A stretch of DNA of 64,000 nt from contig NC_092349.1 in the NCBI RefSeq assembly GCF_963676685.1, forward strand, positions 63,438,924-63,502,923. The letters run 5' to 3'. The position numbers were made by a program, and so were the translations under genes. The DNA comes from Mytilus edulis. Lineage: Eukaryota. Of the stretch, positions 5,741-62,091 are shown piece by piece. Numbering within the stretch: position 1 is the first letter of the stretch; every line of letters starts with the position of its first letter. The notes beneath the pieces are model-generated. The model saw only the letters and a program-made list of their open reading frames with translations. It made no database searches and was not told where the DNA came from.

Positions 5741-6130
5741 CTGCAAGATAACAAATTAGATTGATTGTTGGTTGCTTAACGTCCAGTGGCAAATGAACAA
5801 ATAAGATGATAATGTCTTGTCTAATTACGTTGTACATTACTAGTATTTGAAAGGTGAATAATATGACCAGATAACTCTAAGAAATATTTTTAAAATTGTT
5901 TGTTCCTATTATGCTACGTTTTCTTTCTCTATTTTATATAACGTTTTTATGGTGTACTAGTTTATCATCTATTTATTCCTCCGCAAATTTAAATAAACAT
6001 GCAAAATATTTTTTAAATACGAAAATTCAAACGATCGCATCAACAAAAGAAACACGAAACATGCACCAATAGATCAACGATCAATTTATCTTCTTTTTAT
6101 CGTCATTCCACTGATTGGAACTATATTTAC

Positions 6131-6481
6131 CTTATCTGTTAGAACATAGGCGTTGACAACATCTACAACTTCTTCATAGGCTCCTGGGAGATAAGCTCCG
6201 GTCTTCTTCACCAGCCATTCCTCACCGGTTACCCTAGCAACACCTTGTCTATCAATAGTCTCCTTCCTAGCCCTCAATCTAATGGCCTGGTTAGGTCTAA
6301 TGACTGTGGCTCTGACAGTCTCCTCAATAACAACCTCTTTCCTTGGGATATATGTTCCTGGTCCTTCAAATAGCCACTCATCCCCAGCTGTTCTCTTTTC
6401 TTCATCATCGTCTTCAAAGTCTAGAATAGCTCTGAGCCGAAGAGCGGAGTTGGCTGCTACCACCTTCAGGGAGGTTACAAC
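6131..6481 (-). CDS. MVP: Major vault protein, coding exon 3 (vault repeat domains)
   Basis: Translation [117 protein letters not shown] contains the hallmark MVP repeat motifs ([31 protein letters not shown]). The exon is 351 nt, phase 0. The acceptor is cgtag and the donor GTAAAT (revcomp of 6125-6130). Confidence 0.9.
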
Positions 6482-18818: not shown

Positions 18819-19957
18819 CGTTTACTATGGCAAGCCGTTCTCGTCAAAACTATGAATAAACCATTTTTCGAAAAATTTACACACTGAGAATTAAATACTT
18901 CAAAACACACACTGAGAATTAAAAAATACACACTGAGAATTAAAAATTACACACTGAGAATTAAAAATTACACACAGAAAATTAAAATTACACACTAAGA
19001 TTATACAAAAATGAAAAACACACACTGATAATTGAAAATTACACACTGAGATTTCAAAAAGACACACTGAGAATAATATAAATAAACTGAAAACACACAC
19101 TGAGAATTTGAAATTACACACTGAGATTTGTGCGCACTTTTTATGCGCACATATCTAATTAGCATACTTAATCTGAATCTATTACAAGCTTAAAACAACT
19201 AGGGGACAGCACTCAAAAAATGTTTATAAAAAAACTTTAGAAATACAAGAACAAGAAAAATACCCACTTATTCTTAATACAAAATATAACCAAATGGTGA
19301 AAAACTTTATTAAAATTATAAGAAAACATTGGAACAATCTGTAAAAAAACAAAGAATGCAAAATTTTTATTCAAGTGTCTCAATAGCATATAAACGTAAC
19401 AAAAATATAAAAGATTAACTTGCGAAATCAGGGTAACAGTTGGAAGACTTTTCAAAAGGGACCCATGCTTAAACGGTTTAAAGTAGAAAAAAATCCCGAT
19501 ACACTGGTAGTAATGATCTGAATTATAGGCAACAAACTTATGAATATGAGCGATGTTAAGTCTTGAAATTTATTACGACTGTTGGTTGAAGGAATCGCAT
19601 TTCATTATAATGACAAGAGTTCTTGAGATCAAGATATTAATCTGTTGAATTATTCATTTCATGAATATTCATTAGTAATTTGCATATTAATCTCAGTGTG
19701 TATTTTTGAAATCTCAGTGTGTAATTAAGAATTCTCAGTGTGTGTTTTTCAATTTATTTCATCTCAGTGTGTCTTTTTAAAATCTCAGTGTGCAATTTTG
19801 AATTATCAGTGTGTATTTTTTATTCTTTTAAATCTCAGTGTGTAATTTCGATTTATCAGTGTGTTATTTTAGGTTTTAAAATCTCAGTGTGTATTTTTTT
19901 TTCGAAAAAAGGGTTTAAGCATAGTTTTGACGAGAACGGCTTGCCATAGTTTACTAT
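18819..19957. mobile_element. Foldback-like element: ~310-bp inverted arms (18819-19129 / 19688-19957) made of ~20-bp sub-repeats (acacactgagaattaaaaatt)n, ~560-bp unique middle
   Basis: The left arm gtttactatggcaagccgttctcgtcaaaactatg...(cacactgagaatt..)x11 is the revcomp of the right arm (aatctcagtgtgt..)x9...catagttttgacgagaacggcttgccatagtttactat. Confidence 0.7.
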
Positions 19958-21751
19958 CGGAGGGTCACAATTTCAGCAGATAAGACACAGAACTGTTGAG
20001 ACAAGATATCAATTTTTTTAACCAAACAATCTATATCCTCATCTATGAAAGAACAAATGACTTATTGTTTTAGACAAAACCCATCTGGTATCAAGGACTT
20101 TTTGGTTTGACTTCTATCCAAGTACTTTTAACATGCGACTTCAATGATTTTACAGAAGTCCATGATGTTGTTACCACCTGACATAACAAACTGGTACACA
20201 CTATACTTATATATGGCAAAAATATATCAAACACTATTTTACAATTGCCGATCGCCCACAAAACCAGATAGACACTGGATTTTATTATAATCTATCATTA
20301 ATACACATAATATTTACACATAATATTTTATGCAAATAGTATCTATGAATTGAAAAAAAATTACTCTGTCATAAACGAATCCGCCGGCCAGGAAAAATCA
20401 ACAACCAAGTTCACTGGTGTCAACGTGATAATCGTAACTGCAATAACGATCATCCCAATATGGCGGACACAAATTTAGGAAGTTACCTTAGTCGATATGG
20501 AAACCTGTGTTCAAACCCAAATGCTCGGAAGATCGTCTCGAGAGGTGAACATTGGACAGTACTGAAAAATAGCTTATGTTTACATAAACAAAATGTCAAC
20601 AAAATGTGTACTAGTAAACAAAATACCAATATATACATGTAGTACAAAACAAGAAAAATCAAACAATAATGAACCAACATTAAACTGAACTTAACCAGTT
20701 CGAAGTTGGCGAAATAATGGTTTAATAGGGAAATTAACCCGCTAAAATGACCACTCACGTGATACTACAATTGATATCATGTGTCCATACATATACATTT
20801 TGTATTTGAAAGACCCGTTAGTACCATAATTTTCCTCTATACTTCGAAACGCGGAAAATTATAAGAACAATTTGGTTGAATCACAGACGTCATACATGTG
20901 TTTTATGTAGGGCGAACTTGCAACCAAACAGGCAAATACATTGGCCACACATTACTGGTGATGAACTTCTCAGGATAATATAATAATACTTTTTAAATTT
21001 CAAAATATCGTTCAATTAATGTCAACAAGGCAGGGACACGTCGCTTTCAGTGATTATTTGTAATGGGAATCTTAATTATTTCTTTATGCCAGCATAATGG
21101 TTCCGGTCAAATTGGCGTTAACCCGATAGAGAGTAACATGTTTTAGTTTGACAAAGAGCTTGTCTTGATACCTGTGAATACTGTAAATCACTGGTTATTG
21201 TTGGTGGTACAAGTACAAAAAATGAGTAATTTTGTATCTGCATCCTTTGTGTCATTCTGTAGTAGTAGAGACGGTTTAGTTTTAGGCACCCCAAAAACGC
21301 AGGGCGAGAGGGCGCAGCCAAATATGGCCAACACCCGCCCCTTTATCGAAACGTCCCCTCCGGCTGACCAAATATGGTCAGCTGACTAGGACGACACAAT
21401 ATGACTCATAAGTCCATCGTTCGTAATTACGCTCAGTTGGAATGACTCATATCCACAAATAAGGTAAGAACGTTACAATATGACTGGTCAGACGTGACTC
21501 ATGTTGATCGGGGATAATTCAAAAACGGAAGGGTGATATCCATATACGGACATGTATCGAATCAACCAATGGCAAAGACGGAACGAAAGTATTGTTTTAT
21601 GCAACCACAAAAACGCAAGGCGCTAAGACGCTGACGTCATATGAACAGTATGACTCACGTAGATCTTTGCCAATTCTAGTATGAAGGGCTATATATCAAA
21701 ACGGAAGCACCAGATGTCGGATTATGACTCTTGGACCACCATATGATGAAT

Positions 21752-22078
21752 TCCATATATGGAAAGCGACCACAATACCCTATGACCATATATGGAAATT
21801 ATGACCAAATTTGGTAAGAACCTTATTTTCACTCAAAATAAACATACATGACCATATATGGAAATCGACAAAACAACCTATGACCATATATGGAAATCAT
21901 GACCAAATTTGGTAAAAACCTTATTTCCGTTGAAAAATCAAAATAAAATACATGACCATATATGGAAACCGACCAGATACCCTATGATCATATATGGAAA
22001 TGATGACCAAATTTGGAAAAAAACTTTTATTTTCACTCCAAAATCAAAATAAACATATATGACCATATATGGACAGCA
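21752..22078. repeat. ~110-bp tandem repeat x3 carrying perfect CArG boxes (CCATATATGG), left arm; followed by two CACGTG-containing 98-bp repeats (22079-22200)
   Basis: The unit catgaccatatatggaaatcgac..ccctatgaccatatatggaaatcatgaccaaatttggtaa.aaccttatttt.c is repeated. CCATATATGG occurs ~7 times. aggtcacgtgatcgtatcgaggaac occurs twice. Confidence 0.8.
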
Positions 22079-22325
22079 GGTCACGTGATCGTATCGAGGA
22101 ACGTTAACTCTGGTACAAAACAAGGGAAGCAACTCTGTATATATATCTCTCGTGGAGTGACAATTCAACGAGGCAAGGTCACGTGATCGTATCGAGGAAC
22201 TCTGATACAAAAAAGGATAGCAACTCTTCATGATGTGAGCATCAATCACCGATTAATCGTATCGTGTTCGGGGCAAATAGAAAAAATACCAACACAGATG
22301 TCAGTTTCATATATATTTATTACAT

Positions 22326-22766
22326 TCATTCGTACAATGCAAGCAGTTTGTCGTCGTTACTCATCGAGTCTCTAGACGAAAAATCTTTCACAATGTCTTC
22401 CATGCTAATGTTTCTATATCTCATCTTCACGAAATGTACACAATAGAGTCCGCATGTATCGGATGATCCCTGTTGCACTTGAGTCGTACTGAATCTGTAT
22501 TGAGGTCCATTGGCGATGAGCACGTTCCTGAAGCGACGAAGGTAATACTCCGGAGAACGTCCGAACGAATCGAAAAATTCGACGGGTCCCTCTCGCGGGA
22601 AGTGGAACGCCACCCAGTGAATGCGCTTGTCGTCGCAGTCGTCCGTGTTGACGACGAAACTGCGGGGCCTGTTCGAGACTTCATCCGGCAGTTCATCGAC
22701 ACAACACACGGTCGCCGGCAGGTCTTCGAGATAACACTCCAGTTCGTATCCGAAGGTTCCCTCCAC
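22326..22766 (-). CDS. Adenain-like (peptidase C5, adenovirus/Polinton-type) cysteine protease domain ORF, left palindrome arm
   Basis: The 146-aa ORF MEGTFGYELECYLEDLPATVCCVDELPDEVSNRPRSFVVNTDDCDDKRIHWVAFHFPREGPVEFFDSFGRSPEYYLRRFRNVLIANGPQYRFSTTQVQQGSSDTCGLYCVHFVKM... matches adenovirus protease motifs recalled from memory. These are the catalytic His (GGVHWMAFAW ~ RIHWVAFHF), the Asp/Glu region (LFEPFG ~ FFDSFG) and the Gln...Cys region (QSVQGPNSAACGLFCCMFL ~ TQVQQGSSDTCGLYCVHFV). The ORF is GC-rich and intronless, in an AT-rich setting. Confidence 0.75.
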   Translation of the reverse strand: MEGTFGYELECYLEDLPATVCCVDELPDEVSNRPRSFVVNTDDCDDKRIHWVAFHFPREGPVEFFDSFGRSPEYYLRRFRNVLIANGPQYRFSTTQVQQGSSDTCGLYCVHFVKMRYRNISMEDIVKDFSSRDSMSNDDKLLALYE

Positions 22767-23005
22767 GCCGTCGTCTTCCGTTCTGCATCGTTTGGCGGAT
22801 GGTTCTTCGCCACAGTCCCTATCTTGATGGATCTCAAGTCAATGACTTGTTCACGGAAGGATCGCATCATCGGAACCTGTCGGTGTTGGCTGTGAATCAG
22901 AACCTGTATTTCGGGAAGGATCCGACTCAGAGAAGAAACTGTCACTACCTGGTCCTCTTCGACAATCCAGTCGATCGCCAGCCCGTCGCCACGCTAGGTA
23001 GACAG

Positions 23006-23774
23006 ATGTATCCGAGTCAGAGACACCTCTTGATGCAAACGTTCCGAGAGGCCACGAGGAGACCCTTCGGATACCTTGTGGTGGATCTGAAGGCCGCTAC
23101 ACCCGAACACTTGAGATTACGTAGCGACGTCTTGGGCGGAGGCGAGGACGACGCCGAAGCCGAGGACGAAGACGTCGATTCCACCGGAAGCGAATCGAAC
23201 ACCATGGAATTCGAGGAAGAAGACGTCGGAAGCGAATCGGACCTGATGGCTTGCCGCGCATGCGGACTGGTATTTGCGCACGTCCGGGGACTTGAGATCC
23301 ATCAAGAGAGGGACTGTGGCGAAGAACCATCCGCCAAACGATGCAGAACGGAAGACGACGGCCTGGAGGGAACCTTCGGATACGAACTGGAGTGTTGTGT
23401 CGATGAACTGCCGGATGAAGTCTCGAACAGGCCCCCGCAGTTTCGTCGTCAACACGGACGACTGCGACGGCAAGGGCATTCACTGGGTGGCGTTCCACTT
23501 CCCGCGAGAGGGACCCGTCGAATTTTTCGATTCGTTCGGACGTTCTCCGGAGTATTACCTTCGTCGCTTCAGGAACGTGCTCATCGCCAATGGACCTCAA
23601 TACAGATTCAGTACGACTCAAGTACAACCGGGATCATCCGATACATGCGGACTCTATTGTGTACATTTTGTGAAGATGAGATATAGAAACATTAGCATGG
23701 AAGACATTGTGAAAGATTTTTCGTCTAGAGACTCGATGAGTAACGACGACAAACTGCTTGCATTGTACGAATGA
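23006..23774 (+). pseudogene. Second copy of the adenain-like protease gene (right arm), with acidic N-terminus and C2HC finger; frame broken by +1 C in a C-run (23432-23436)
   Basis: Frame A from ATG 23006 reads MYPSQ...GGGEDDAEAEDEDVDSTGSESNTMEFEEEDVGSESDLMACRACGLVFAHVRGLEIHQERDCGEEPSAKRCRTEDDGLEGTFGYELECCVDELPDEVSNRP. The protease domain RSFVVNTDDCDGKGIHWVAFHF...CGLYCVHFVKM...LALYE then continues in the +1 frame to the stop at 23774. The left copy has gcccc where the right has gccccc. Confidence 0.6.
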
Positions 23775-24034
23775 ATGTAATAAATATAAATGAAACTGAC
23801 ATCTGCGTTGGTATTTTTTCTATTTGCCCCGAACACGATACGATTAATCGGTGATTGATGTTCACATCATGAAGAGTGGCTTCCCTTTTTTGTATCACAG
23901 TTCCTCGATACGATCACGTGACCTTGCCTCGTTGAATTGTCACTCCACGAGAGATATATATACAGAGTTGCTTCCCTTGTTTTGTACCAGAGTTAACGTT
24001 CCTCGATACGATCACGTGACCTGCTGTCCATGAC

Positions 24035-24360
24035 CCATATATGGTCATATATGTTTATTTTGATTTTGGAGTGAAAATTAATGTTTTTTTTCCAAATTTG
24101 GTCATCATTTCCATATATGATCATAGGGTATCTGGTCGGTTTCCATATATGGTTATGTATTTTATTTTGATTTTTCAACGGAAATAAGGTTTTTACCAAA
24201 TTTGGTCATGATTTCCATATATGGTCATAGGTTGTTTTGTCGATTTCCATATATGGTCATGTATGTTTATTTTGAGTGAAAATAAGGTTCTTAACAAATT
24301 TGGTCATAATTTCCATATATGGTCATAGGGTATTGTGGTCGTTTTCCATATATGGAATTC
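24035..24360. repeat. Mirror copy of the CArG-box tandem repeats (right arm)
   Basis: This is the reverse complement of 21752-22078 (tttccatatatggtcat... units). Confidence 0.8.
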
Positions 24361-25769
24361 ATCATATGGTGGTCCAAGAGTCATAATCCGACATCTGGTG
24401 CTTCCGTTTTGATATATAGCCCTTCATACTAGAATTGGTAAAGATCTACGTGAGTCATACTGTTCATATGACGTCAGCGCCTTAGCGCCTTGCGTTTTTT
24501 GCGGTTGCATAAAACAATACTTTCGTTCCGTCCTTGTCATTGGTTGATTCGATACATGTCCGTATATGGATATCACCCTTCCGTTTTTGAATCATCCCCG
24601 ATCAACATGAGTCACGTCTGACCAGTCATATTGTAACGTTCTTACCTTATTTGTGGATATGAGTCCTTCCAACTGAGCGTAATTACGAACGATGGACTTA
24701 TGAGTCATATTGTGTCGTCCTAGTCAGCTGACCATATTTGGTCAACCGGAGGGGACGTTTCGATAAAGGGGCGGGGCTTGGCCATATTTGGCTGCGCCCT
24801 CTCGCCCTGCGTTTTTGGGGTGCCTAAAACTGAACCGTCTCTACTACTGTTCGGTCTAATATCGTAAAACGTCTATGCAATTTTTACACTCTTTCAGTGT
24901 TTAATTGAAACAAAGAAATGTCCAAACAAAACCCGGAATGTTCTAGCCCTAATGAAGAGTGGCAATTTTCCTAAGCAGAAAGATTTCTTTTCTTGTGGTG
25001 CAATGATTTGCCTATACAGCAAAATTGGTAAGATATTAGTCTTGTATCTATTGTCCACACAACGCACGATTCCTAGCAAGAATGATCAATGTTTCAATGT
25101 CAGTGTCATGCTCTGAGTCAATTTAACTTTTAACCCAATTTGCTTGTCCTTGGTGTGCACATGATTTTTTTTTCGGTTTATAATTCCCTGCTAGGTTCAG
25201 CCTCGTTTTGGATAAAATTATCCGTCTGATCAACAATGTCGTGAAATGTTTACACTATTTACTGGCTTTGTAATAACACGAGCAACACGACAGGTGCTAC
25301 ATGAGGAGTAGGATATGCTTACCTTTCTGATCACCTGAAATCACTCCTAGTTTTGGATGGGGTTCGTGTTCTTGTACCCCTATTTGTGACATTTTGTCCA
25401 CCCATCATTGTCAATAAAATGGAATTTGATGCAACTGTCGTACAAGTGAGAAGTTTACCGCTATAAAACTATATGTTCAATCCACCATTTTCTACATTTG
25501 AAAATGCCTGTACCAAGTCAGGAATATGACAGTTGTTGATCACTCGTTTGATGTGTTTTATCATTTGATTTTGCCATTTGATTAGGGACTTTCCGTTTTG
25601 AATTTTCCTCAGAGTTCAGTATTTGATTTTTGTCGAGCCTGCAACTTTTGTTGCAGGAAGCTCGACATAGGGATTGTGATCCGGCGACGGCGGCGTTAGC
25701 TAACTTCTTGAATGCTTCATACTTAGTATATGGATGCCTCATGTTACGAAGTTTCCTTCAGTCACATGT

Positions 25770-32711: not shown

Positions 32712-33308
32712 GCGATTGTGGAGGGAAGTCAGATATAATATTTGCTATTCCTGGGAACGCAGACATTCCGGGGGAAGAATTCTTTCCGTTTGAACGATTT
32801 TTAACCATGCTTACAGATTATTTTCAAATCGACAGAGATAATGTAAATGTTGGTCTGATATTATACGGTAGAGAAGCTGTTGCAATCAGTTGGCCGCAAC
32901 CAATGAAGGACCAAACACAAACGAATACCAGAATAAGCCTTCTTGCGCAAAGAGAATTATACAATGGAAAACTAAAAGGAGCAGCAGATGTCAAAGCGGC
33001 ACTTTACTTAATGCGACAAATGTTCAGAAATCCATCCGGTTATCCTCTGGTACTACCTAGACCCGACACCAAACAAATTGGAGTAATGTTCACCTATGGC
33101 TCAGTTCAGGCAGATATGATCCCCGATGTCATTGCAGCTACAAAACAGTTTAAGGAAGCTGGAATCGACATGTATTCAGTTGGACGGATGCCAAATGGTG
33201 AATGGTTTCCTGAGATAGCCTCTCATAAATGTAATGTTTTCTCAATGGAAAGTTACTCGGAAGGTCTAAGAGGTCTTCTCCCTTATATCGGGAGCAGTAT
33301 ATGCACAG
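32712..33308 (+). CDS. Secreted VWA + chitin-binding protein, exon 2 (von Willebrand factor type A domain)
   Basis: The acceptor is ctatttttag. The exon joins exon 1 in phase 1 (g+gc = G). Translation GDCGGKSDIIFAIPGNADIPGEEFFPFERFLTMLTDYFQIDRDNVNVGLILYGREAVAISW...KQIGVMFTYGSVQADMIPDVIAATKQFKEAGIDMYSVGRMPNGEW has VWA-domain spacing (DIIF..G / VGLILYG / TYGS..D / GIDMYSVG). The donor is cag|GTTAGT at 33309. Confidence 0.75.
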
Positions 33309-33704
33309 GTTAGTTTATTTTTGCATGTATTTTAAATCGATTTTTTATATTAAAAAAAAAATAGACACACATCCTTGTTTTTGTTTTTTGCTATGAATCG
33401 GTACTGTTAATTTTGTTTCGTTGATCATCATCGGAACTTCAATCTGATTTATACATTTTGTGTTTCTTGTTTTCTTTTGTATCCAAATACTTCTTGTAGA
33501 ATTGTATATTTTATAATTGTTTCAAAAAGAAAATTCAGAATAAACAAACAAACTGATATTTGTTCAAAATTTTATATTTTATTTATATACCATGTGTCAT
33601 ATACAAATAGAAAATATGATAAAAAGTAAATCAATAGTCTACAAGACACTACAGACACCCAAAGACATAGCAAGACGAACTCCACCAAAAACTGAGACTG
33701 ACAG

Positions 33705-35272: not shown

Positions 35273-36956
35273 GTAAGTAAAGCATGGTACATATTAACCG
35301 TCAGATATATACCTGGATATGAAAGTGCCTCTCTTAAATTACATTGAAAAAGAAAAAGATAAAAAAAAATATTTTGAAAACGAGTAAAGATATTTCACAT
35401 AATTAAAATCATTTGTCTAGGTACAAGTTACATATATATAAACTATATATATAAAGACAATCGACCATATTTATTGCACAAACACAAACACATTTACATT
35501 AAATGTTTATGGATATACAAATACATGTCTTTTATAAACTTGAATATGTACGCTTTTGTAACGCTTGTATGAAAGATCGTTCAGGGCTAACCTCAACATG
35601 ACCGGAAGGAAACCATCCCATATCTAGTGTTTCCATGTTTTAAATTTATTGTCAATATTTATGGCTTAATATCCGGGTTGTTTGCGCATCTTTTTTTTAC
35701 GTTATATAAATGAAGAGTTACGTTATGGTACATAAACGGTTGATCCCAATATTGGTAAAGCGTGCTTCATAGAGAGTTTCTTTGGTCAAACAATGGTCCC
35801 TGCAATTTATGTTTGTTTCGCATTTTGTATGTCATGTGAAGCGTTTTAAATAAATTATTTCTTTTCTTGTAAAAGAGGTTAGTTAAACATACTTGAATGA
35901 TCACTTTGATGGTCGAACATCCAAAAATCTGACCGTAAGTTTTTTAGAAGCGATGTCGTCTGCAAACTACGATGTTACTAGGTTTGTATAAATTAATCTA
36001 ATATACTTACAAGTTTTAGCTTTCTAAAAAGCTATGGACTGCTTCGCTACACCCTAATTCAAGGTAATATGTGTGCATGTGGTTGTTGAATTAGTATTGG
36101 AAATGTGGTATTTATAGATATTGATTGATATAAAATGGATGTACTTTAAAAGTGTGCGTTACATACCCATGTTTAAAAAAAAAATCTTTTTTAAAATAAA
36201 ATCAATTATAAATAGACACGACTTTTGATGTGTGCCTTTTTGGAGGTGTGCCTTAAGTTAGATTGTCAGAAAAATACAGATAATACATTTTTGTAAACAT
36301 TGTACTGATAGGAACATTGTTTAGCAAAGCAAATAGTGCAAATTGCAGAGTAACAAAGAAAATAAACACGTATTTAAAATAATTGATATTTCAATATTGA
36401 ATTTGTCTGTAAAATGTATGCATAATAAAATGAACATGAATTAATAACAGTTGATTGGAACTGAAATACACATAGTTAATTTTCCGTCATTTGATGTCTT
36501 ATCCTGGGCAAGAAAAGTCTGTATTTCCTTATCTCATTTAAGCCAATAGCTGTTGGTATATCTCAGCCTCATCATAACGCAACCAATCAGAATCTATACG
36601 TGATAAGTAATTTATTCAAGATGGCCTGTATTTTGACTAAACACTTTGAATTCGTCCTGTCAATGATGTTGGACTGATCTTCGTACATGTGTAGCGCGTG
36701 CAACACACACTTTTCGTTAATATGTCATTTAATACTAAGAAACGTAGAAAAAAAAATCATATATCTGTAATTAATCCTATTTTGCTGGACATTGAGAAAA
36801 CGGAAACAGCGGCTTTTCATTTATTTATGTAAACTAAAGGAGAACAAAAGCAACGTTTTTCTTTATTTATACAGAAAATAAATGAATTATAGTATTTCAA
36901 TGGCATACATCTTTACCATAATATGATATATGACAATTCTTTTATTTTATTTTCAG

Positions 36957-37324
36957 AATTTTGGAAGCCAAGTCCAAACCCGCCAGTTATTTGTCCGTCC
37001 TTGAATGCAATATTTCAGGATCCTTATAATTGTGCTTATCTATTCAAATGCGATTTGAATATTCCTGCGCGTGAAAGATGCCCAACAGGGATGCTCTTTG
37101 ATAACTCAATTAAAGCTTGCAATCACAAAGATGCAGTTCCATGTTACTCAATGATCACGTGTCCAAGTCACATGGGTTTGTTTCCGCATCCAGAAACATG
37201 CAAAAAATTCTTGAATTGTTTCGACAATATTCCATATGTGCAAAAGTGTCCACGTGACCTGTATTTTAACAATGAAACCAAAATCTGCGAAGAAGAGTAT
37301 AAAGTTAATTGCATATTTCACTGA
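36957..37324 (+). CDS. Secreted VWA + chitin-binding protein, terminal exon (two peritrophin-A / ChtBD2 domains), stop TGA 37322-37324
   Basis: The acceptor is ttttattttcag. Translation KFWKPSPNPPVICPSLNAIFQDPYNCAYLFKCDLNIPARERCPTGMLFDNSIKACNHKDAVPCYSMITCPSHMGLFPHPETCKKFLNCFDNIPYVQKCPRDLYFNNETKICEEEYKVNCIFH gives two 6-Cys modules with CBM14/peritrophin-A spacing. AATAAA lies at ~37547. Confidence 0.8.
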
Positions 37325-43788: not shown

Positions 43789-45051
43789 TTTGATGTTTGT
43801 CTTTCCAGTAACTAAATAATCAATGACTTGTGTAAGGTCAATGACCTCTCTCATAAGTAACCCGTACTGTTTATCTTTCCGGAGAATCTTCAATAATTTT
43901 GGCAAACAGGAGAAACTGAGTGACTTCCGAATTAATAATGACTAAAATATTTTACTGATACAATTTCTTCTGTTGAAACTCATCTTAGCAAAATGAATAA
44001 TAAAAAACCCAATGTAAACAACACTAAGATAAGAATTTCAGAAAATTGCCAAGCATTTGAATTTAAATAAAAACATGATAAGAGTCAAATTGACACACAC
44101 CGATGTATAGTATGCCGGACTTATTTTCCTTTTTGGGACAAGTATGTTTGTCCGGCGCCAGAAATTATTATATATCCAAACTCGGTCTATAGTCACTGTG
44201 ACGTTTCGAACATAATCTATGCATTACTGGTAAATTATTAAGGCAAGAAGAGAAAGTACAAATGTCTTAAAACCTTTGATAAATTATTTCAAAAGTACAC
44301 AGGTTTGGTTTGGACGTTTGGTACTACCTATAGAAAAATTATTATAACGGCATAGCACATACTTTAATTATACGGTGATATTGTTTACCGAGTACATAAA
44401 CTTAGATACAATCTTGGTAAACTTATTGAACATTTCAATAAACTTATTTTAAAAAGTTACAAAATTCAACACTGTAATTATATCTTTGAATATTATTTTC
44501 ATCGGTATGAGTGTTAATTTTGTTATCAATAAATTAAAACCTACCTAAATTTTAATGTTATACACATATGTAAAAATATGGAGATGTGGTATGTTTGCGC
44601 CAATGAGACAACTACCCATCAAAGTTCAAATAGAGTGAGAGAAGTAATAATGGGGAACTGTACGGCCTTCAACAATAAGAAAAAAAAACCATACAGTATA
44701 GTTGGCTGTAAACGTCCTGACAAGAAAAAAATGAAATAATTCAATTGCGAAAACTAAGAGCCAGGACCCGTATGCATAAAACTACTTAAGTTTAGAAATC
44801 CATCGTAGTACCTGATTTACAACCAAAATTTGTTTAGGATTTGCAAATATCACAGACAAGAAGCAAGGACAACCACTGATATACAGGTTCGTGATATTGG
44901 ACAGGTACAAAATGTATATAAAGGGTCGGGGACGTTTGTGCTTTTTAACCTGTTACACGAAAGGACATTTGCGCTCCAAACACTATGGGCATATGCCTTT
45001 TAATCTTTTAAGTTGTTTGGACGGTTGCGCTTTTTATATGACAGTTTACCC

Positions 45052-46783
45052 GTAATCGTACGGAAGCGTATTAGGGACATAGAAAAAATAAAATTGGCAT
45101 TGAACTTTTTTTTCAAAGTCAAAATTTTGACTTTTCAAATCTCGAAATTTTGACTTTAACTTGAAATTTTGACTTTTAAAATCCCGAAATTTTGACTTTA
45201 AATTGAAATTTTGACTTTCTAAAGTCTTAAAATTTCTACTTTTTGAAAAGTCGAAATTTTGACTTTTTTGAAACTCGAAATTTCGAATTACAAAAAGTCG
45301 AAATTTCCACTTTAAACTCGAAATTTCGAGTTTTTTGAAACTCGAAATTTTGACTTATTTAAAACTCGAAATTTTGACTTATTCAAAACTCAAAATTTCG
45401 ATTAATTTAAAACTCGAAATTTCAACTTATTTTAAACTCAAAATTTCGACTTTTTTAAAACTCGAAATTTCGACTTATTTTAAACCCGAAATTTCAACTT
45501 ATTTTAAACTCAAAATTTCGACTTTTTGTAAACTCAAAATTTCGAATGTTGAAATCGCGAAATTTTGAATTTTTTTAAATAATTTTAAAACTTTGATGTT
45601 AGTATTCAAACACAGTTATTACAATTTTAGAAGGAGTAGACATGGACGCAAATTATTAAAGCGTCTTCCACACATTTTGTCAATTTATATTCAAAAATTT
45701 GTTTTGTTCTTAAATTAAGATATGGATCAGCATTTAATATTGAAGAAATCATTCGTAAAAAGAACATGCATGTTGACAGAATCCCCCCCCCCCCCCATAT
45801 TTCATTTTTTAGTTTCCACGACACTGTCATAGGATCGTCAGATCTGAGGACATTTAGCATCACAGTTTCAAAGGCTTGTTTGGTATCCCAATAGCAAGTC
45901 ACTGACTTTGCCTTGTTTAAACAAAATGCCATTCATATTCAGGACGACCAATGAGTTGCTCAGTTTTCTAGTTTTGGAAGTTTGCATTCTTATAACACAA
46001 CTATTAACCCTTGTCTTTATATATTAGACTGTTGAATAAAAGTATATCGTAATATAGGTGTGTCGGAATAGCGGGGGTGTCTTGATACACATATCTGAAG
46101 TTCAGACTTGAAGTATGTATTCGAACGTGAAACATATTTTATTTATTCTTCGCCAAAACAAGATTTTCTATCTAAAATAACCTCTCTAACATGGTTTAGT
46201 TTATTAAAATATGCTTATGAAGTTTGTGATGTATATGACTCTCCGCCTTGCTGATATAAATGACTGTGAATGTGGTAATCGCAAACGTATAAATACTGAG
46301 GAAAAGTCGAAATTTTAAGTTTAAAGAAAGTTGAAATTTTGAGTTTAAAAGAAGTCGAAATTTCGAGTTTAAAAGAAGTCGAAATTTCGAGTTTAAAAGA
46401 AGTCGAAATTTCGAGTTTAAAAAAAGTCGAAATTTCGAGTTTAAAAAAAGTCGAAATTTCGAGTTTAAAAAAAGTAGAAATTTCGAGTTTAAAGTCGAAA
46501 TATTGAGTTTAAAAGAAGTTGAAATTTCGAGTTAAGAAAAAGTCGAAATTTCGAGTTTGGAGAAGGCGAAATTTCGAGTTTAGAAAAAGTCGAAATTTCG
46601 AGTTTTAAAAGAGTTGAAATTTCAAGATTTTAGAAAGTCAAAATTTTAAGATAAGAAAAGTTAAAATTTCGAGTTAAAGTCGAAATTTTGAGATTTGAAA
46701 TGCCAAAATTTTGACTTTGAAAAAAAATGTCACTACCAATTTTATTTTTTTTCTATGTCCCTAATACGCTTCCGTATAATCGT
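45052..46783. mobile_element. Foldback-like element (1.73 kb): arms 45052-45590 / 46296-46783 built of ~25-bp sub-repeats whose core TCGAAATTTCGA is itself palindromic; ~700-bp unique middle
   Basis: The outer ends gtaatcgtacggaagcgtattagggacatagaaaaaataaaattgg and ccaattttattttttttctatgtccctaatacgcttccgtataatcgtaac are inverted. Inside are (aactcgaaatttcgacttatttta)n and (agtcgaaatttcgagtttaaaagaa)n. The 77-aa ORF 45335-45568 is a repeat artefact. Confidence 0.7.
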
Positions 46784-49700
46784 AACTAAATTTAATTTGG
46801 CTCGTTTAATTTTCTTAAAATGTTGACAAAGTATTTATACTTTGACCATTTGACAAAAATATTTTAAAAACATGAACCACACATTTTGTCTGAAAAAAAT
46901 TCATTTGGGTATATAATAGTTTGGCGAACATTTTTTTTTATCATCGAGATCTTAATATTTCATAAACAATAGAACGTGTTGAAAACGTTCAGGCGATTTT
47001 ATAGAGTTATCTCCATGTAGTGTTTTGTACCACATTAAATTAAGTAAAGCTGTTCACATATTCTTTGGCAGGTCCACTATACAAACCACAAAATCGGGAA
47101 AAAATATTCGGTAAACGATAGAGATTTGTTTTCTTGGATAGAATTTAAAAATCTGTGCCTTAAATTCTTAAAGCAGCTTGATACAATTCGTGTATTTTTA
47201 TAAAAGGAAACTATCAGACTATATCATCATAGTTAAACTTTATTATCAATTTGTGATGACCGAAAGATAAGTGTTTAACTCAACTGCTGTTCATGTTGAC
47301 TTTAAAGAAAGAAACATTGTTGTTATAAGACATTTACTTCCATCCGCCCTCTTGTAGTGTTGTCGTTTTTAGGTTTGACACAAGCATGATGGCGGAAGGT
47401 TTTAAGTACATAAATTGACACAGCATTATATAATGAGCAAAATCCATACTTATAATGAAATGAATGTTGAACAAAACAAATGACCTTATGTTGATCTTGC
47501 CAGAATGTATGAATGTTTATGGTATCTTTACATAGAATGTTGACTGCTCTCAGTTATTTTATCTTGGATAAAAGTTGGTGTTGAGGTCATAATATTGATA
47601 CAAATTGTCAAATTGCATAATAAAATATCAAAATCTCGAGGTAAATATAAGAACGGAGCAAATTAAAAGCGACGTACCTAGCAAGAAAATATGTATTTGA
47701 ACATCCAATACTTAAAATGAAGCTTTGGGCAAATAAAAATAAATAAAAATAAGACTATATTAAAAAAAAAAAATATTTTTGATATTAGAAAAAAAGATCT
47801 AAAATGATATTATGAAATATAAAAATTAGTATCCAATAAATCATAACAAATAAGGTTACACCATATAAAATCTGACCTTATAATTTCAAGGTGTTCGCTT
47901 GCTAAAAGGCATAAAATCTTTGACATGTAATGTTTATTCATATTATGTTACGATTCCGCAGTAAATAATGACAGATTTGTCTCCCGTTAAGTCAGATTTA
48001 CACATTTATACTCTCGGTACATATATTTTATTTCACAATGTGCACATCTACCTGCATATACAGTAGTATAATGCGGTAATAACATTGTCTTCCCTCAAAC
48101 ATGACAAGAGTTGACAGTTACATATCAAGACAATCATTGTCACGCATAGTCAGACTATCTATTATTACTTACTAGGAGTATCTGTCATTCACCAAAAAAA
48201 ATATATTGATCATTTTCTATATGTATTGGGATTTTACTAAATAATCAGGTAAAGATATTATTTAACTTTTTGTCATTTTTTGGTGATGGTTTTATATTAA
48301 TATGCAGTCGCAGGGTAAAGATTTGAAATAAAGAAAAAATAAACATTTCGGAAAGCATTTTATTTTTAGATGTTTACATGCATTAATTAGACGATGCACT
48401 AAATATATATGCACGAGAACTCGGAAATTGCCTTTCTATCTGAGGTGACTTCTTTTTTAAATTGCGTTCCATTCTAATAATCTACACATATTGACGCTAA
48501 ATAAGTTAGTCTTTTTAATTTGTTTCTTTGCGTTACGCGGTGAAAACATATCCGCAGTTGAAAACGAGTTCGAAATATTTCAATTTTTTTTTCGGTAAAA
48601 AAAGACGACATCTTATGTTACGCAATAAAACAAAAAAATATAAAAAGGCGTCTGACATTTGGTACGGCAGGTCGCTATCAAACAAATTAATTTCAAATGC
48701 TAATACTTGTCAACTTTATATACTGTTGTTACTTTTGTTTTAATACACGATTAAGACGTCAATGCCATATAGATGCAATTATGAACATCATGATATTCAA
48801 ATTTTATGTTTATATTAATATTCTAATTTAGCTTAACCTTGCCAAATATATTTCATATCATTCGCTTGCGTCAGTAACGAATCGAAAATATATAATTTAA
48901 ATTTGTCTTTGGTGAAATTGATACTCTTTATGACTTCATAAGAATATATGATGTTCGGTGCAAGCTAAGACTCCGTGCCGAAGACCGTACTTTGACCTAT
49001 AATGGTTTACTTTTACAAATTGTGACTTGGATAGAGAGTTGTCTTATTGGCATTTATACCACATCTTCTTGTATCCATATAGCATGATGCCGATAACAGT
49101 TATAATTTTTTTTTATATAAAATTGTTCGTGTAATTGCATTTTATGAAGGTCTAGTTAGTGGTTCAACATTTTCTTATTTTTTACTTTGTTTTTGCCATT
49201 TCCTTATCTAATTCTGTAAATTAACATGTAAAATATTTTACTATTAAATTTATCTGTATTTGCACTATTTTTCAATTATGTACATCGTTTATTTCGTATA
49301 ATTTCGTTCTGTTTCATTTTTAATTCCTTAACACCATCGAACTATGTATATATTTTGCTTTTTTTATTACCTAAAAATATTGCATTGTACATGTACATAA
49401 TAAGTAACTGTAATGATTGCATTTTGTTTTATTTATAATTCTGAAAAGATAGTCTTTGCTCAATTTGTTTTAAATTTTTCAGTATGTTGAAAACCCTTCT
49501 TTTAACATTCAAATGTCTGTATTACGCAATAAATAACGAAAAGGATTAAAAATGTAAGGTAATGTTTTAAGATTAATTAATGTTAAATGTACATGTCTTA
49601 TACGAGATTATTCATTTGTATAAGTATTGAAATTCGTAGACACTCATTCAGAAAAACCACACCGAACAACATGCTGTTTGTTTTCTTCAATTTGACTGAT

Positions 49701-52700: not shown

Positions 52701-53560
52701 TCTTGTGTTCTTGAAAGAATTTAACAAGGAAAAATGGCTTAGGATGGGTTCCCATATACAGTCTTCACAATAATATCCTGCTATCTTACTAAGTATTTGA
52801 TGAAATATAATAAAAAAACCCAACACGTATCGATTGATTTAAACGTTAATTTACAATGTACGAAGTCATGTGTATCAGAATGTACCATTTTCTCGTAAAT
52901 CAGATGTTAAAACTGTTAGTTATTTATAGTCCGAAGATCAATATAAATCGAAAGGCAAAAAACTTTCATTCAAAGATTTATTTGATAGGATAAAACGAAA
53001 CACCTGTGTGATTGTCTGGATTCATCACCCTAAAACAAAACCGCACCTCTGGCAACGACCTCAATGCATATGAGTACGCTATTAATAGGTCAATACACAT
53101 CATTGAGTCACTTTAGTGTACTGGAAACGGTATTTCTCCAACCGGTAGTTTACAGTCAGCATACATAAACATGATATTTTTTTTTCAATTGGTCAGCAAA
53201 AGTTGATAAAAAAGACATATTTTTGCAAAGTGACGTCCTAAAAATAAAAGCTTTTGTTTTCCTGTTGTATCGGCAGTATGAATAGCGGTAAATTTTCCAA
53301 TATGAAGGCCTCTACAAGAAGAAGTTATGAATTTCATATAAGATACCAGTTTACAATTATATATACAGGATGACGTATATTTATAAACACTGTGCGGGAC
53401 AAATTTGCCATTCCGGTATCGGCAAATCTGACTTTGTCGGTTTACAAGATATCCAAAAAAAAATTTGCCCAGTGATAGATTATTGAAAAATTAAAAAAAT
53501 GCCATATGTCCCAACTTGTCACTGTTGTCACTCTTGTCACTGCAGCTGATTAAAAGTACA

Positions 53561-53892
53561 TTTCCCATGGGAAATTTGATAATTCCCATGGGAATATTAG
53601 AATTTCCCATGGGAACATTGGAAGTTCCCATGGGAAAAATTACTTTTCCCATGGGAAGTTTAGAGTTCCCATAGGAACTTTAAAGTTCCCATGGGAAAAG
53701 ATGAATACAAAAAGTTCCCATGGGAATTAATTCTTCCCATGGGAACAAATTTTCTTCCCATGGGAACAATTTTTCTTCCCATGGGAACAATATTTCTTCC
53801 CATGGGAACAAATCTTCTTCCCATGGGAACAATTTTTCTTCCCATGGGAACAATTTTTTTCACATAGGAACAATTTTTCTTCCCATGGGAAC
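53561..53892. repeat. Array of ~16 units (~20-22 bp) each containing the perfect 12-bp palindrome TTCCCATGGGAA (COE/EBF-type TCCCnnGGGA core)
   Basis: Counted at 53562, 53584, 53605, 53625, 53647, 53688, 53715, 53735, 53757, 53779, 53801, 53823, 53845 and 53882, with degenerate units at 53668 and 53866. ORFs 53660-53920(-) and 53720-53938(+) are artefacts. Confidence 0.85.
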
Positions 53893-54261
53893 ATACTATA
53901 TTACAACATGTACAATACAAACATTATTTTCCATTTGAATTTTTTTCTTCAGAAAAATTACAATTTGTTGCAAATACTGGATATATATGAGAATAAAAGA
54001 GAATATACTTCTGCCTTAGCTGGATGGAAAGCTGTAGGGGATAACACATTTTTGGAACCTTGTAAAACATCTCAGAAAAGCAGATTTGTCTCCGGTACAA
54101 GTTTGCAATTCCGCTGAGTGCAAAAGTTGTTCACCTTAATTTTTGGAGTTAAGTCAAAATGAAGTTGATAACTTGGTTGGTATTGGTTCCCTGATATTTG
54201 TCCTAAAATTGTTTGGCTCTAGCACCACTGTTGAAAAAGTTATGCCCCTTTTTTCAACAAT

Positions 54262-54470
54262 TTCCTTAGAGGAATAGTTGTTTTCCTCAAGGGAAATCAA
54301 ATTTCCCTAAAGGAAAAAGATTTTTCCTCAAAGGGAAATTGTTTTTTCCTCAAGGGAAATTGTTTTTTCAAGAGAAAAAGATTATCTTCAAGACAACAAA
54401 TTTCCTCTAATGAAATCATTGTTCTTCAAATTTCCTCTAAAGAAATTTCTGAACATCAAATTTCCCTTAT
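54262..54470. repeat. Second array (~10 x ~22 bp) of TTCC...GGAA-type units, including gggaaatcaaatttccc palindrome
   Basis: ttcctcaagggaaatcaaatttccctaaaggaaaaagatttttcctcaaagggaaattgttttttcctcaagggaaattg... lies 370 bp downstream of the TTCCCATGGGAA array. Confidence 0.75.
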
Positions 54471-56827
54471 TTGTTCTTGTTAAACATTTCTTCGCTATAC
54501 CATGTATACAAACAGTATGAATATAATTATTACAAGACTGTATAGTTGATGCAAATGATATTCAAAACTTTCATAAATGTTTGACTCAACATTTTAATGA
54601 CATTGAAAATTGATAAAGTCTGACTGTTTAGATCTAGGTATTGTTCATACTTTTTATAAAATTTAACTATGATTTATAACAAAAATTTGTAGCAAATGAT
54701 TCTGTTTTCTTTGTAATTCATGTAATTGTTTCAATGCAATACATTAATAAGCAACCAATTTGAATGTCATACCATTTGTGGTGTTCTAAAGAATTTGTTT
54801 ATATATTTGCAGATTAAATAATAAAATATACACTTTTCGTGTTATTTTAAATTAAAATTTTCTTCTGTTTCAGCTTGTGTACAGTTTTCAATCCACTACG
54901 TAAGAATTCAGTGAATACATTATTCCATTCACTTAACATTTTCCTTCAATTCTAAGAGAAAACATTTTTGCAAATTGTTCTTCAATGATCTTCTTCCGTA
55001 TATTTGATATGAGGGAGCGATGTAAATGAGTGGATAAAACTGGTGTTCCTTTTTTCAACAACAAAATAGTATTTGTTCTGCATTCTCCTTTCTTTCGAAT
55101 AATATATATAATATGTTGTTGCTTTTATGCAATAGTGTTTTTGTGTATCTATGATAGAACTCCATTTTGTTTATTGGCATTATCATGTGATAATGATGAA
55201 ATTTCCTGTTTCTTTTTTGCAGGAAAGCACACATTCCAGTTCAAATTAATCCAATTATGCACTTTGTAAATAAATTTCAACTTTAAGTTTCCTCTTCAGT
55301 AATGACCTATTGATCGTGAAAACCAAGATGTCTGATCACCTATAAATACACAAAATAAACAAATAAAATGTTATAAATGGAGAGAGAAACAGCAATAAAT
55401 GTTTTTCATATGTAGCTTTCTTTATTAAAATTCATTAAGTAAACTTGAACCTTGCGAAAAATAATTAGCTGTGATGTAGACTAGAAAGTATAAAACGCAA
55501 AATAAAGTAGTCGCGAAAAATTAGTTGATTTACATTAGTCCAGTCTGTGTTTGCAGGAAATTTACATCATAGGTTGCCATATTCCTATTGTGCCTGTCCA
55601 AAGTTCAGAGCCTGTAGTTTTTGTAAGTTTAGTCTGACACTAAAATTTAGTGGTTGTTGTTGTTGTTGTTTCATACCGGTTATATTTATTTTTTGTAATT
55701 TATTTTGTAATAAACTAGGCAATTAGTTTTACAGTTTGAACATGTTGGATTGTTTCAATTTTTCATCTTTGGGTCTTTTATAGCTGCCTACTTTGACTAT
55801 AGGGTATGGATTTTCTCATTATTGAAGGTCGTCACAGGCCTACAATTGCTTTCTTAAAGCCATGATAGTTTTCATATTTAATATACCACATCTTTTAATT
55901 TTTATAGTAATCATGATTATCATCTTTCAAGTTCAACAACTTTAAAAAATAAATAAAAGTGGCCTTACCATTTAGGTTTAGTTTGCTTCTGCAAATTTTA
56001 AATTGCCTATCATTTCTGCTGTTTATAATTTCTCTGTATCTTCTATAGTTCTTGTCCTATACATAAAAGAGTAAAAGTTATTATTGAATGGCATCTTGCA
56101 TCAATATTATTTTTTGCTGTTTAATGTACATGATGTATATTAATGTGTGTTTAATAAGAAGAGTGCACATGCTGAAATGTCTCGCCTTCTTTTACTAATC
56201 ATTGATAATATGTTGATAGTCCTAAGTATAAAGCTTTATCACAACTGTCACATAAACTTAACATTAACCAAGATAAATAAATAAAGACTAATGAACCATG
56301 AGAATGAGGTCAGGCCTAAATTAAAATATTGTTTGTTTGCCCTTTTCCGACCCTATTTTTTGAAACAAGGTAGGTAGGTAGGTAAAATATTTTATTTTTC
56401 TTTCCCATAAAATAACTTGGCTCGGTACATTTTTTGTCATGGGTAGGCAGGTAGGTATAATATTTTATTTTATAGATACAATATCTGAATGATATCATTT
56501 TTGTCTGTATTTGCTCTTGTTTTAAGAATGATCGATTTTACTAATCTTTACTTTTATTAAAGTTTCTGAATAGTCCCAGGAAGTTATGAAAAAAATTTAT
56601 CATGTATAATGTGAAGTTAATTTATATGCACTTCTATTTGTTTTTAAATATCAAAATATAGGGCTCGAGCATATTTTCAACAATTATATGCCTGGAACTT
56701 TTAAAGAGTTTTAACTTGCACTGATATTCTGTACTACGTACATGAACCTTGTACGCTTAACTTGACCGAAAGATTTATTAATATCATATATATCTCCCTA
56801 GCATGGTTTGTGAAACAGCTTTACTAT

Positions 56828-57012: not shown

Positions 57013-57939
57013 TCCAACCCCTATCTATAGTATGTGTCATTCCGACATTTTACCAATTTTATCAAAATTTGAACTGAAATTATCAGAGATGATATCTGTG
57101 AAATAAAAAAAAAATATTTGACTAGAATATAAAGCCACTGCCCAGCAGTGCATTTCCCACCATCGTCATCATGCAACAAGTTAAAAGAGCTAAAACTAAG
57201 CATTTATCTTACTTTATTTACAACCCTAGAGACTGAGTGTGTCCGGGTGTTATAAAAAAAAAGCTAAAAGACTTGAAACTCAAATGTCACATATTTTACA
57301 TCGCATTTATAAATGGTCTGCAAGGAAAACTTGGCGATTTTACTGCCAATTATTCTCCAATTTACAGGACTTCGGTTCATTTCAGATATAAATAAAATGT
57401 CAAAGCTGGTAATAGGCAGCAATAACATAATCATCCGGATATACGAATCACTAAACGTCATCCTTATACATGTTATATAGGATACAACATCCGTTAACAA
57501 AATATTTTGTACACACGTTGATAATTTTGTATTGGACAAACTTTTTTGAATGAACCCTGCTCTTCAAGTATAAAGGGCAACGTTGGTTATACTTTCAACA
57601 TCGACTTCAATCAAAAGCTTTGAATCTCTAAATGCAAGTGTTCATGCCAAACGCTGACGTGATACCAAATGGACTTAACCTTATACGGGGAAGATAAAAC
57701 CTGTGGATTCCGGTAAAAAAGTTTTGAGCAGGAAATACAAATATAAGATTTTCGGGAGGAACAAAAAATAATTAAAACAAAATATTGCTGGTAAATACAA
57801 ATAAAAGATTTTCAGTCGGAACGAATTTATAGAGTCGGTCGGTAAAGGGCAAACAAATAATATTTTAATTTAAGCCTCAATGTCAGATGAACCATGCCAG
57901 GCAGACATATACAGCTAACAAGGCTTCAATGCAACAATT

Positions 57940-58795: not shown

Positions 58796-59300
58796 TTTAA
58801 AATTAACACCATTCGAACGTAAATATATTTCAAAATTAAGATGCTGCAATGTAAAATCCCAGTAGACAATGGTAGAGCTGGGAAGATGGTATAAGTCATT
58901 CCAAAAGAAGAAAGGACATGCAATCTGTGTTTAACTGCAATTGGCAATGAATTCCATTATTTATTTGAATGCAATTCTTTATTAGTTAAAAAATATCAGA
59001 AATCAGCATATTCCAGAGTACTATGTGAAATATCAGAATTAAGCAAAAATGAAAGGACTAACTGTCATTGACAAATATTAACTTATTATTTAAAAATGTG
59101 TCTATATTCATTTCAAAGTTAACTAAAATATTATAATGTTAAAATATTATAATATAAAGTAATTTTCCATATATTTTATTTCTAAGTTGTTTTATTTTTT
59201 TTTTTAATTGTATGTGATTGTATTTTGTAATTTACCTCTTGTTTCACATGTCAATGTGACGGAGTGTTTTTCAAATAAAGCATATTGTATTGTATTGTAT
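58796..59300 (+). mobile_element. 5'-truncated non-LTR retrotransposon (LINE) 3' fragment, ending in (ATTGT)3 microsatellite tail, nested inside a GGCGGATCC-family MITE; 5-bp TSD TGAAT (58791-58795 / 59301-59305)
   Basis: The fragment contains the C..LC...EFHYLFEC motif (CNLCLTAIGNEFHYLFECNSL, 58918-58980), typical of the extreme C-terminus of many LINE ORF2 proteins (zf-RVT-like; established knowledge). The interrupted MITE catttgaa|...|tgaatggggacatgtagttgg matches the uninterrupted copy 38470-38500 (catttgaatggggacatatagttgg). Confidence 0.6.
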
Positions 59301-61311: not shown

Positions 61312-62091
61312 TCATAAAGCAAATGCATTACATCGGTACAGAGATAACAAATACAACAATAAATATTTACGATATGTACAAAACAAGCGAGAGAGGTTAC
61401 AAAAGTTACAAGCCAGGAGTACAAGCACGGGCCGACAAACACAAGTATTTATATTTTCTATAAAAAAAAAACAAAGCTTCTTCGGAACTGGTTTTCTTGT
61501 ACTTGACATAACTTCAGAGAATTTAACTGTATTTTGCCGTTTTGTAAAATATGCAGTTAAAAACTCTTTTCGTTTTTGATTGAAAAATTTGCATTCAAAT
61601 ATAAAATGATATTCGTCACCTATTTGTCGATTGTTACATAGACTGCAAAAGCGGTTTTCTCTGATTACGTTTTGCCATCTTCCTGTTTCAATCGGCAACT
61701 TAGTATTAGTCGTTTGAAATCGACAAAAAACAAAAGCGTCTTTGTATTTAAAATTTATACTATGTTAATTTATTTGTATATGTCTCTGTACCATTGTACT
61801 TTGGTTTATGAGAATAAAGATATATATATATATATTGAAGTCCAAAATATTAAAATATTTTCAATTTCAAGTTGTTTTTTTTTAATTTTTGTAGTTTATA
61901 CCTTTTGACAAATTTTGAATGAGGGAATTCCAGTTCTGAATATATTGATATAGCAATCTCTGCTTTATGACAGTTTTTAACCATTCTTTATTAACAAAAT
62001 TTTGTGACTCCCATATGTTTGAGAAACCACAATCTTGAAAGATTTTTTGTATAAACAAGATCCATTTTATCTGGTTATTATGTAGCGACAA
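61312..62091 (-). mobile_element. Degenerate LINE ORF2 C-terminal fragment (minus strand)
   Basis: ORF 61882-62091(-) reads ..KIFQDCGFSNIWESQNFVNKEWLKTVIKQRLLYQYIQNWNSLI.. (the conserved post-RT tail). ORF 61312-61698(-) reads ..RFCSLCNNRQIGDEYHFIFECKFFNQKRKEFL (C..LC...DE.HF.FEC motif). An (AT)n stretch and frame breaks separate them. Confidence 0.6.

Follow-up and report, generated by a model that had tools for sequence, protein, structure and literature searches.

Array 1 (53562-53891, approximately 330 bases) is a tandem row of 16 units of approximately 21 bases, each centered on the palindrome TTCCCATGGGAA, and by analogy with known elements it would most closely resemble the repeated protein-docking sites of transposon arms. 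Our leading reading, to which we give a little less than an even chance, is that array 1 may be an orphan array of transposon type, its sites being those of a dimeric DNA-binding protein, and that part of it was amplified again in situ. From B-DNA geometry, a period of approximately 21 bp would correspond to two helical turns, so that neighboring palindromes would all face the same side of the helix. With its invariant palindromic core and free spacers at this two-turn period, the array appears to resemble consecutive binding sites of a homodimeric protein.

The locus had been presented in a preliminary description as sixteen perfect palindromes. The 16 tandem units are all there, but the palindrome is exact in 14 of them, starting at 53562, 53583, 53604, 53625, 53646, 53686, 53715, 53734, 53755, 53776, 53797, 53818, 53839 and 53880. 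The two imperfect units are TTCCCATAGGAA at 53666, with one mismatch, and TTCACATAGGAA at 53859, with two. The tandem period given earlier stands as well, but its range of 20-22 bp does not: the steps from start to start are 21, 21, 21, 21, 20, 20, 29, 19, 21, 21, 21, 21, 21, 20 and 21 bp, i.e., 19-21 bp with a single 29-bp step at 53686-53715 that is due to the junction spacer listed in Table 1. TRF divides the array into 53562-53698 (period 21, 78% matches) and 53715-53893 (period 21, 86%), and in the latter it also shows a 63-bp higher-order unit at 90%. We refer to the two parts as sub-arrays a and b.

Table 1. Coordinates of arrays 1 and 2 and of the segments that adjoin or separate them
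Feature	Position	Description
9-bp repeat	53516..53542	Unit TTGTCACTG, 3 tandem copies (TRF period 9, 3.0 copies), directly upstream of array 1
Sub-array a	53562..53697	7 units of 20-21 bp; 6 exact cores and 1 with 1 mismatch (53666)
Junction spacer	53698..53714	AAGATGAATACAAAAAG, 17 nt, between sub-arrays a and b
Sub-array b	53715..53891	9 units; 8 exact cores and 1 with 2 mismatches (53859); homogeneous spacer CAATTTTTC
Inter-array spacer	53892..54261	Unique, approximately 370 bp, separating arrays 1 and 2
Array 2, proximal part	54262..54358	Five units; pseudo-palindromic core TTCC-N5/6-GGAA (e.g., TTCCTCAAGGGAA); T-rich spacers
Array 2, decayed tail	54359..54470	Includes two 30-bp units (54397-54456)

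Cores and spacers differ sharply in conservation. In sub-array a, 1 of 84 core positions departs from the consensus as compared to 13 of 36 spacer positions (Fisher p = 3e-7), and the pairwise identity of the spacers is 39%, against 33% expected from composition, so that they are almost randomized. The corresponding figures for sub-array b are 0 of 84 and 14 of 63. This strong excess of conservation in the cores over the spacers lends support to the idea of an array bound by a protein. Sub-array a would be the older part, its cores having been protected by something. Sub-array b looks younger and locally amplified because it is homogeneous and has the 63-bp higher-order period; it may represent the recent local amplification of one unit type.

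A second palindromic array had been placed approximately 370 bp downstream, and it is indeed present. Its five TTCC-N5/6-GGAA units begin at 54262, 54283, 54303, 54324 and 54346 (spacing 20-22 bp) and are followed by degenerate 30-bp units to approximately 54465. The period of array 2, approximately 21 bp, is the same as that of array 1, and array 2 looks like a diverged or decayed sister of it.

These observations bear on whether array 1 could be a neutral, locally born minisatellite, i.e., a 21-bp unit expanded by slippage or unequal exchange with no protein involved, the palindrome being either incidental or a source of hairpins that merely promote slippage. We consider this unlikely. The homogeneity of sub-array b and its 63-bp period are typical of recent local amplification, the 21-bp unit is of minisatellite size (10-100 bp), and the array occupies one locus in the window (the whole 64-kb stretch of DNA analyzed here) with unique flanks. 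Single-stranded array 1 also folds very stably (-105 kcal/mol, z = -12.8), a trivial consequence of its palindromes. Short-period arrays are, in addition, common in this genome, as judged from at least seven loci with arrays of 20-28-bp period that TRF finds in the window. Neutral decay, however, should strike cores and spacers alike, which is not what the intact cores and near-random spacers of sub-array a display, and it leaves a sister array with the same period 370 bp away unexplained.

The second haplotype that we could compare points the same way, if weakly. The metagenome scan, which looked for two TTCCCATGGGAA cores 19-22 bp apart, returned one contig of the same species, L025 (ERZ887851). 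It is the same locus in reverse orientation, spans 53643-54793 of the window and differs from it at 11 of approximately 1,150 bases (approximately 99% identity). Its differences sit in the flanks and in array 2 (with SNPs at 54373, 54384 and 54385), and in the tail of array 2 it retains a more intact GGAAA...TTCCC unit. The 12 units of array 1 that it covers are the same in number, order and spacers, apart from one extra T in a T-run. Allelic length polymorphism, a minisatellite trait, is therefore not seen over these 12 units in a comparison of two haplotypes, which makes it a weak argument against a neutral minisatellite. L025 would fit a stable allele from the same species, and two haplotypes say little about constraint.

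Could array 1 instead be one copy of a genome-wide satellite family built on the 21-bp unit? Its head-to-tail tandem organization (TRF) is that of satellite DNA, related arrays exist in other organisms (see below), and the short-read contig L025 terminates within the array, as contigs often do at repeats. Fifteen matches to TTCCCATGGGAA with at most one mismatch occur in the 64-kb window, all of them inside array 1; dinucleotide shuffles predict 0.25 and give 3 at most. The array, at only 332 bp, is thus the sole occurrence of this unit in 64 kb, and the one same-species contig in the metagenome scan is this very locus. Both facts argue against a satellite family, which we regard as quite improbable. 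The translated frames of the array also matched nothing in a collection of 5.8 billion proteins; that search was of low sensitivity, and its null result is uninformative, probably because of composition-bias correction.

The description of the surroundings as a featureless, AT-rich stretch agrees with what we find. The setting is animal DNA rich in transposons, with no coding sequence detected around array 1. The GC content around array 1 is approximately 0.29-0.32, in a window of approximately 31% GC. No Pfam domain is detected in 47-64 kb (stop-to-stop segments of at least 45 amino acids), and no Rfam family or tRNA in 50-58 kb; by the Pfam scan of 47-64 kb there is no gene or domain within several kilobases on either side of the array. 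Exact-protein look-ups of the open reading frames (ORFs) in and near array 1, and of a 295-amino acid ORF elsewhere in the window, returned none on record. Neither flank, nor the 370-bp spacer between the arrays, has another copy in the window.

Other parts of the window hold features of their own. Exon-like ORFs encode a major vault protein repeat (6086-6463, minus strand), a VWA domain (32807-33313, plus strand) and a peritrophin-A chitin-binding domain (36923-37324, plus strand); the last two presumably belong to a gene of the mollusc shell-matrix type. Because a VWA domain combined with a chitin-binding domain is characteristic of such proteins, the source is probably a mollusc, and probably a bivalve. 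Relatives of the major vault protein sequence that could be looked up belonged to other species, at 84-86% nucleotide identity. A large, near-perfect inverted duplication lies at 21509-24600, with arms that are 96-98% complementary and at least 1.3 kb each. Its center has 48% GC against the background of 31%, and it contains 104-bp arrays with CCATATATGG. The 295-amino acid ORF (22799-23686) lies within this duplication and has no Pfam match even at E ≤ 10 and only a marginal C2H2-like match; a possible likeness to a Polinton-type packaging ATPase was unsupported by Pfam and PDB searches. Tandem units of 35 bp with an 18-bp perfect palindrome, TTGCACAATATTGTGCAA, occur at 277-378 and 1070-1279. 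Pure G or C homopolymer runs of 15-28 bases are found at 8996, 14167, 33730, 33841, 59323 and 62187, and these could be real or could be artefacts of assembly or sequencing. Two ORF fragments, 58895-59068 (plus strand) and 61315-61764 (minus strand), carry a Cys/His knuckle (CNLC...EFHYLFEC and CSLC...EYHFIFEC) and have no Pfam match; we take them to resemble the C-terminal tails of ORF2 of non-LTR retrotransposons. A 41-nt inverted repeat (56312-56352 and 57837-57877, 93% complementary, arms 1.5 kb apart) may mark the ends of a MITE-like element.

We now turn to the evidence for a transposon-type origin. The window contains two foldback-like elements whose arms are built in the same manner as array 1. 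Element A, bounded by terminal inverted repeats (TIRs), occupies 45083-46750 (region 45050-46810), and its outer termini, 45083-45199 and 46634-46750, match at 86%. Its arms are inverted arrays of 24-bp period (45108-45579 and 46302-46726) with approximately 36 units, the core of which is the perfect 12-bp palindrome TCGAAATTTCGA. The core mismatches of element A are located on CpG positions, which suggests methylation-driven decay. By eye, TAATCG is a possible target-site duplication of this element. Element B (18824-19950) has outer termini at 18824-18875 and 19899-19950 that are 88% complementary, and its arms are inverted arrays (18902-19130 and 19689-19897) of 21-bp units with the core ACACACTGAGA. 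In the arm arrays of both elements, the core is significantly better conserved than the spacer, as in array 1. A conserved core with free spacers at a period of 21-24 bp is therefore a property of transposon arm arrays in this genome.

Array 1 has the same foldback-arm trait, a conserved core motif in short repeats whose spacers vary, but the remainder of such an element is missing around it. At every scale tried, the surroundings of the array yielded no TIR, LTR, repeated flank, target-site duplication or long direct repeat. When the left flank was compared to the right by BLAST and Smith-Waterman in three nestings, with shuffles as the control, the alignments scored no better than the shuffles, and 40-53.5 kb against 54.5-64 kb gave no inverted or long direct repeats. 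Sub-arrays a and b show 73% inverted complementarity to each other vs. 67-71% direct identity. With a core identical to its reverse complement and spacers that give no hint of direction, the two cannot be oriented as inverted arms. Because outer termini, a defining feature, were tested and are absent, we do not file array 1 as a member of the foldback/TIR class. It would work like a transposon arm array, by analogy, and we assign it to no transposable element family.

Published elements offer several comparisons. In Galileo, the long foldback-like TIRs contain tandem repeats, and sites inside these repeats are bound by its THAP transposase (PMC3688188); the repeats of Tetris, a foldback element, have seeded free-standing arrays (PMC4079207). 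Foldback-like elements (Drosophila FB, Galileo, Tetris) have in common with array 1 short tandem repeats with a conserved motif, often in many copies over a few hundred base pairs, and elements A and B show that two of such build are present in the window. Array 1 differs from them in having no outer TIR, no target-site duplication and no demonstrable second inverted arm. Most of the published foldback repeats also exceed its unit in length (220 bp in Tetris, for example), and they lack a perfect palindrome as their basis. Since the foldback arms in the window share the design of array 1 and published foldback repeats bind transposase, a mobile-element origin is the most likely one.

The En/Spm (CACTA) transposon repeats a 12-bp TnpA motif subterminally, with variable spacers, over a few hundred base pairs and in both orientations, and TnpA binds paired inverted motifs best. 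Array 1 likewise repeats a 12-bp motif many times with variable spacers, but the En/Spm motifs adjoin CACTA termini, none of which is seen at array 1, and their sequence is unrelated. The gypsy Su(Hw) insulator and the family of repeats of EBV oriP consist of approximately 12-20 close copies of the site of one protein, over approximately 350-600 bp. Both act by multimeric occupancy, and the sites of oriP are palindromes bound by a dimer. In these two systems function and binding have been established experimentally, and the proteins, sequences and genomic contexts differ from those of array 1. In bivalves, short tandem arrays in euchromatin are cargo of the non-autonomous elements Helentron/HINE and MITE (PMC7492417, PMC3879986). 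Helentron/HINE monomers of 140-180 bp lie between an LF module (subTIR, inverted repeat, microsatellite) and an RF module (subTIR, 3' palindrome) (PMC7492417). Array 1 has a 21-bp unit and no recognizable modules of this kind, so it falls outside that definition; by eye, its flanks hold a 9-bp micro-repeat and a small hairpin, both on the same side.

Paired copies of the same 12-mer also turn up in other organisms. The metagenome scan gave a raw count of 27 contigs, and a scan of viral contigs for paired TTCCCATGGGAA cores gave 0 hits. [quoted passage not shown] L015 carries approximately 40 units of TTCCCATGGGAA(C/G)AAAATGA(C/T) with a 21-bp period, including an inverted segment. Directly adjoining them is a second 21-bp array (22-467 of the contig, 21 units) on the palindrome TTGCTAAGCAA, and the arrays abut a truncated rve-type integrase. 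Its layout of two neighboring arrays of equal period with different palindromic cores is that of arrays 1 and 2. No Folsomia genome copy of the integrase neighbor has been recorded, and the Logan contig is broken at the array. Six other contigs (L001, L006, L007, L011, L017 and L024, all JAAUYA01) belong to a dispersed foldback MITE family. Its arms are 135 nt long and 96% complementary (L017), with paired TTCCCATGGGAA sites 22 bp apart inside, and they also hold the half-site-like motif TCCCATGCA. Thus L015 and the JAAUYA01 family indicate that the 12-mer at such spacing recurs in mobile-element-like settings in other animals. A common right-hand boundary of array 1 and L015 was also considered (approximately 18 of 27 bases similar) and judged to be chance; we dropped it because it depends in part on a 9-bp insertion that the second haplotype lacks. 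In a search of the literature, the exact 12-mer came up only in an unrelated primer.

A different protein has been suggested for these sites. EBF/Olf-1/Collier factors bind as homodimers to variations of TTCCCNNGGGAAT / ATTCCCNNGGGAAT (PMC2394523, PMC4512700). The palindromic probe used for EBF is ATTCCCaaGGGAAT and the natural mb-1 site is AGACTCaaGGGAAT (PMC2394523); the fly factor Collier (Col) also recognizes the mb-1 site of the mouse, a single coe gene is present in the mollusc Lottia (PMC2394523), and Collier peaks in vivo contain CCCnnGGGA (PMC4512700). The resemblance of array 1 to this published consensus, pointed out in the preliminary description, holds up well. The TTCCCATGGGAA core fits TTCCCNNGGGAAT exactly at the first 12 of its 13 positions, and TTCCCNNGGGAA of the COE/EBF consensus is fitted exactly by 14 of the 16 units (PMC2394523, PMC4512700). 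The EBF motif scan proposed there, run over the window with TCCCNNGGGA, gives 14 matches, all 14 within array 1. Like the COE/EBF sites, the units have a palindromic core with two half-sites 2 bp apart, which suits the homodimer mode (PMC2394523, PMC4512700, PMC2923972). Array 2 in turn resembles the natural mb-1 site, its units (CCTCAAGGGAAAT) having CTCAAGGGAA in common with it. Given the fit of the core to the consensus, COE would probably bind the units of array 1 in vitro, and probably those of array 2 as well.

The fit does not extend to the outer bases. The full SELEX 14-mer ATTCCCNNGGGAAT, with A at -7 and T at +7, occurs in only 1 of the 16 units, the one at 53583 (one unit has the 5' A and two have the 3' T), so that the outer A/T is not kept in array 1 as it is in that site. 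The full 14-mer is not clearly enriched at the other metagenome loci, where the outer A...T is mostly a reflection of larger palindromes. Known COE/EBF sites occur singly or in small numbers, within promoters or enhancers, and we know of no phased 16-copy array of them. The consensus match is, moreover, cheap evidence, because the unrelated transposon cores of the window resemble classical transcription factor sites too: we take GAAnnTTC to be heat-shock-element-like, CCATATATGG, i.e., the CC(A/T)6GG type, to be CArG-like, and TTGCACAA to be C/EBP-like. The EBF match, with ten specified positions, is nevertheless the most stringent of the palindrome-consensus matches in the window, and an exact fit to the consensus of a conserved host transcription factor is not predicted by a transposon-type origin.

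Array 1 might accordingly be read as a cis-regulatory or architectural element of the host, in which phased, high-affinity sites for COE/EBF homodimers serve as an enhancer, an insulator or a factor sink. We think this rather improbable, and it could be compatible with a transposon origin. In its favor are the exact fit in 14 units to a consensus for which homodimer binding is published, the binding of Col to the mouse mb-1 site and the single coe gene of Lottia (PMC2394523, PMC4512700), the motif shared by array 2 and the mb-1 site, and the intact cores amid scrambled spacers. The same 12-mer and period in an arthropod-associated contig are as expected of a Metazoa-wide factor, and the copy number is identical over 12 units in the second haplotype. 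The rarity of the 14-mer and the lack of a gene or domain nearby count against it. The asymmetry of core and spacer is also found in real transposon arms with unrelated cores, and therefore it does not point to a host factor. The COE motif match in the preliminary description thus survives, but the specific interpretation as a COE or insulator array is weakened by the single 14-mer, the cheapness of the consensus and the absence of a gene.

We return to the transposon-type reading. Array 1 would have been derived from a mobile element, and selection on that element would have kept the cores intact, as in sub-array a and in array 2, its sister. Slippage or unequal exchange would later have amplified a single unit type in place to give sub-array b, and at present array 1 would have no demonstrated host role. 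We infer each of these parts, i.e., the transposon origin, the binding of a protein and the history of amplification, from the comparisons above.

What array 1 means for the genome depends on which reading is correct. As no more than a neutral repeat or one derived from a transposon, it would be ordinary, since 20-28-bp arrays occupy at least seven loci in the window. Even then it would show that the repeats of transposon arms consist of conserved palindromic cores and free spacers, and that such cores readily mimic transcription factor sites, which calls for caution in motif-based annotation. It is tempting to consider a further scenario, though to us a very unlikely one, in which array 1 is a selectively maintained, helically phased row of COE/EBF homodimer sites with drifting spacers and a neighboring row of the mb-1 type. 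Were this true, the recurrence of the 12-mer in the springtail-associated contig, with its 21-bp period, and in the foldback MITEs would mean that mobile elements in distant animal phyla repeatedly carry COE-binding repeat modules, and such modules could serve as enhancers, insulators or factor sinks. If a host factor is the reason why the cores persist, array 1 would offer a rare lophotrochozoan example, found in nature, of a COE platform with many phased sites, and a testable case of mobile elements spreading sites for an animal-wide factor.
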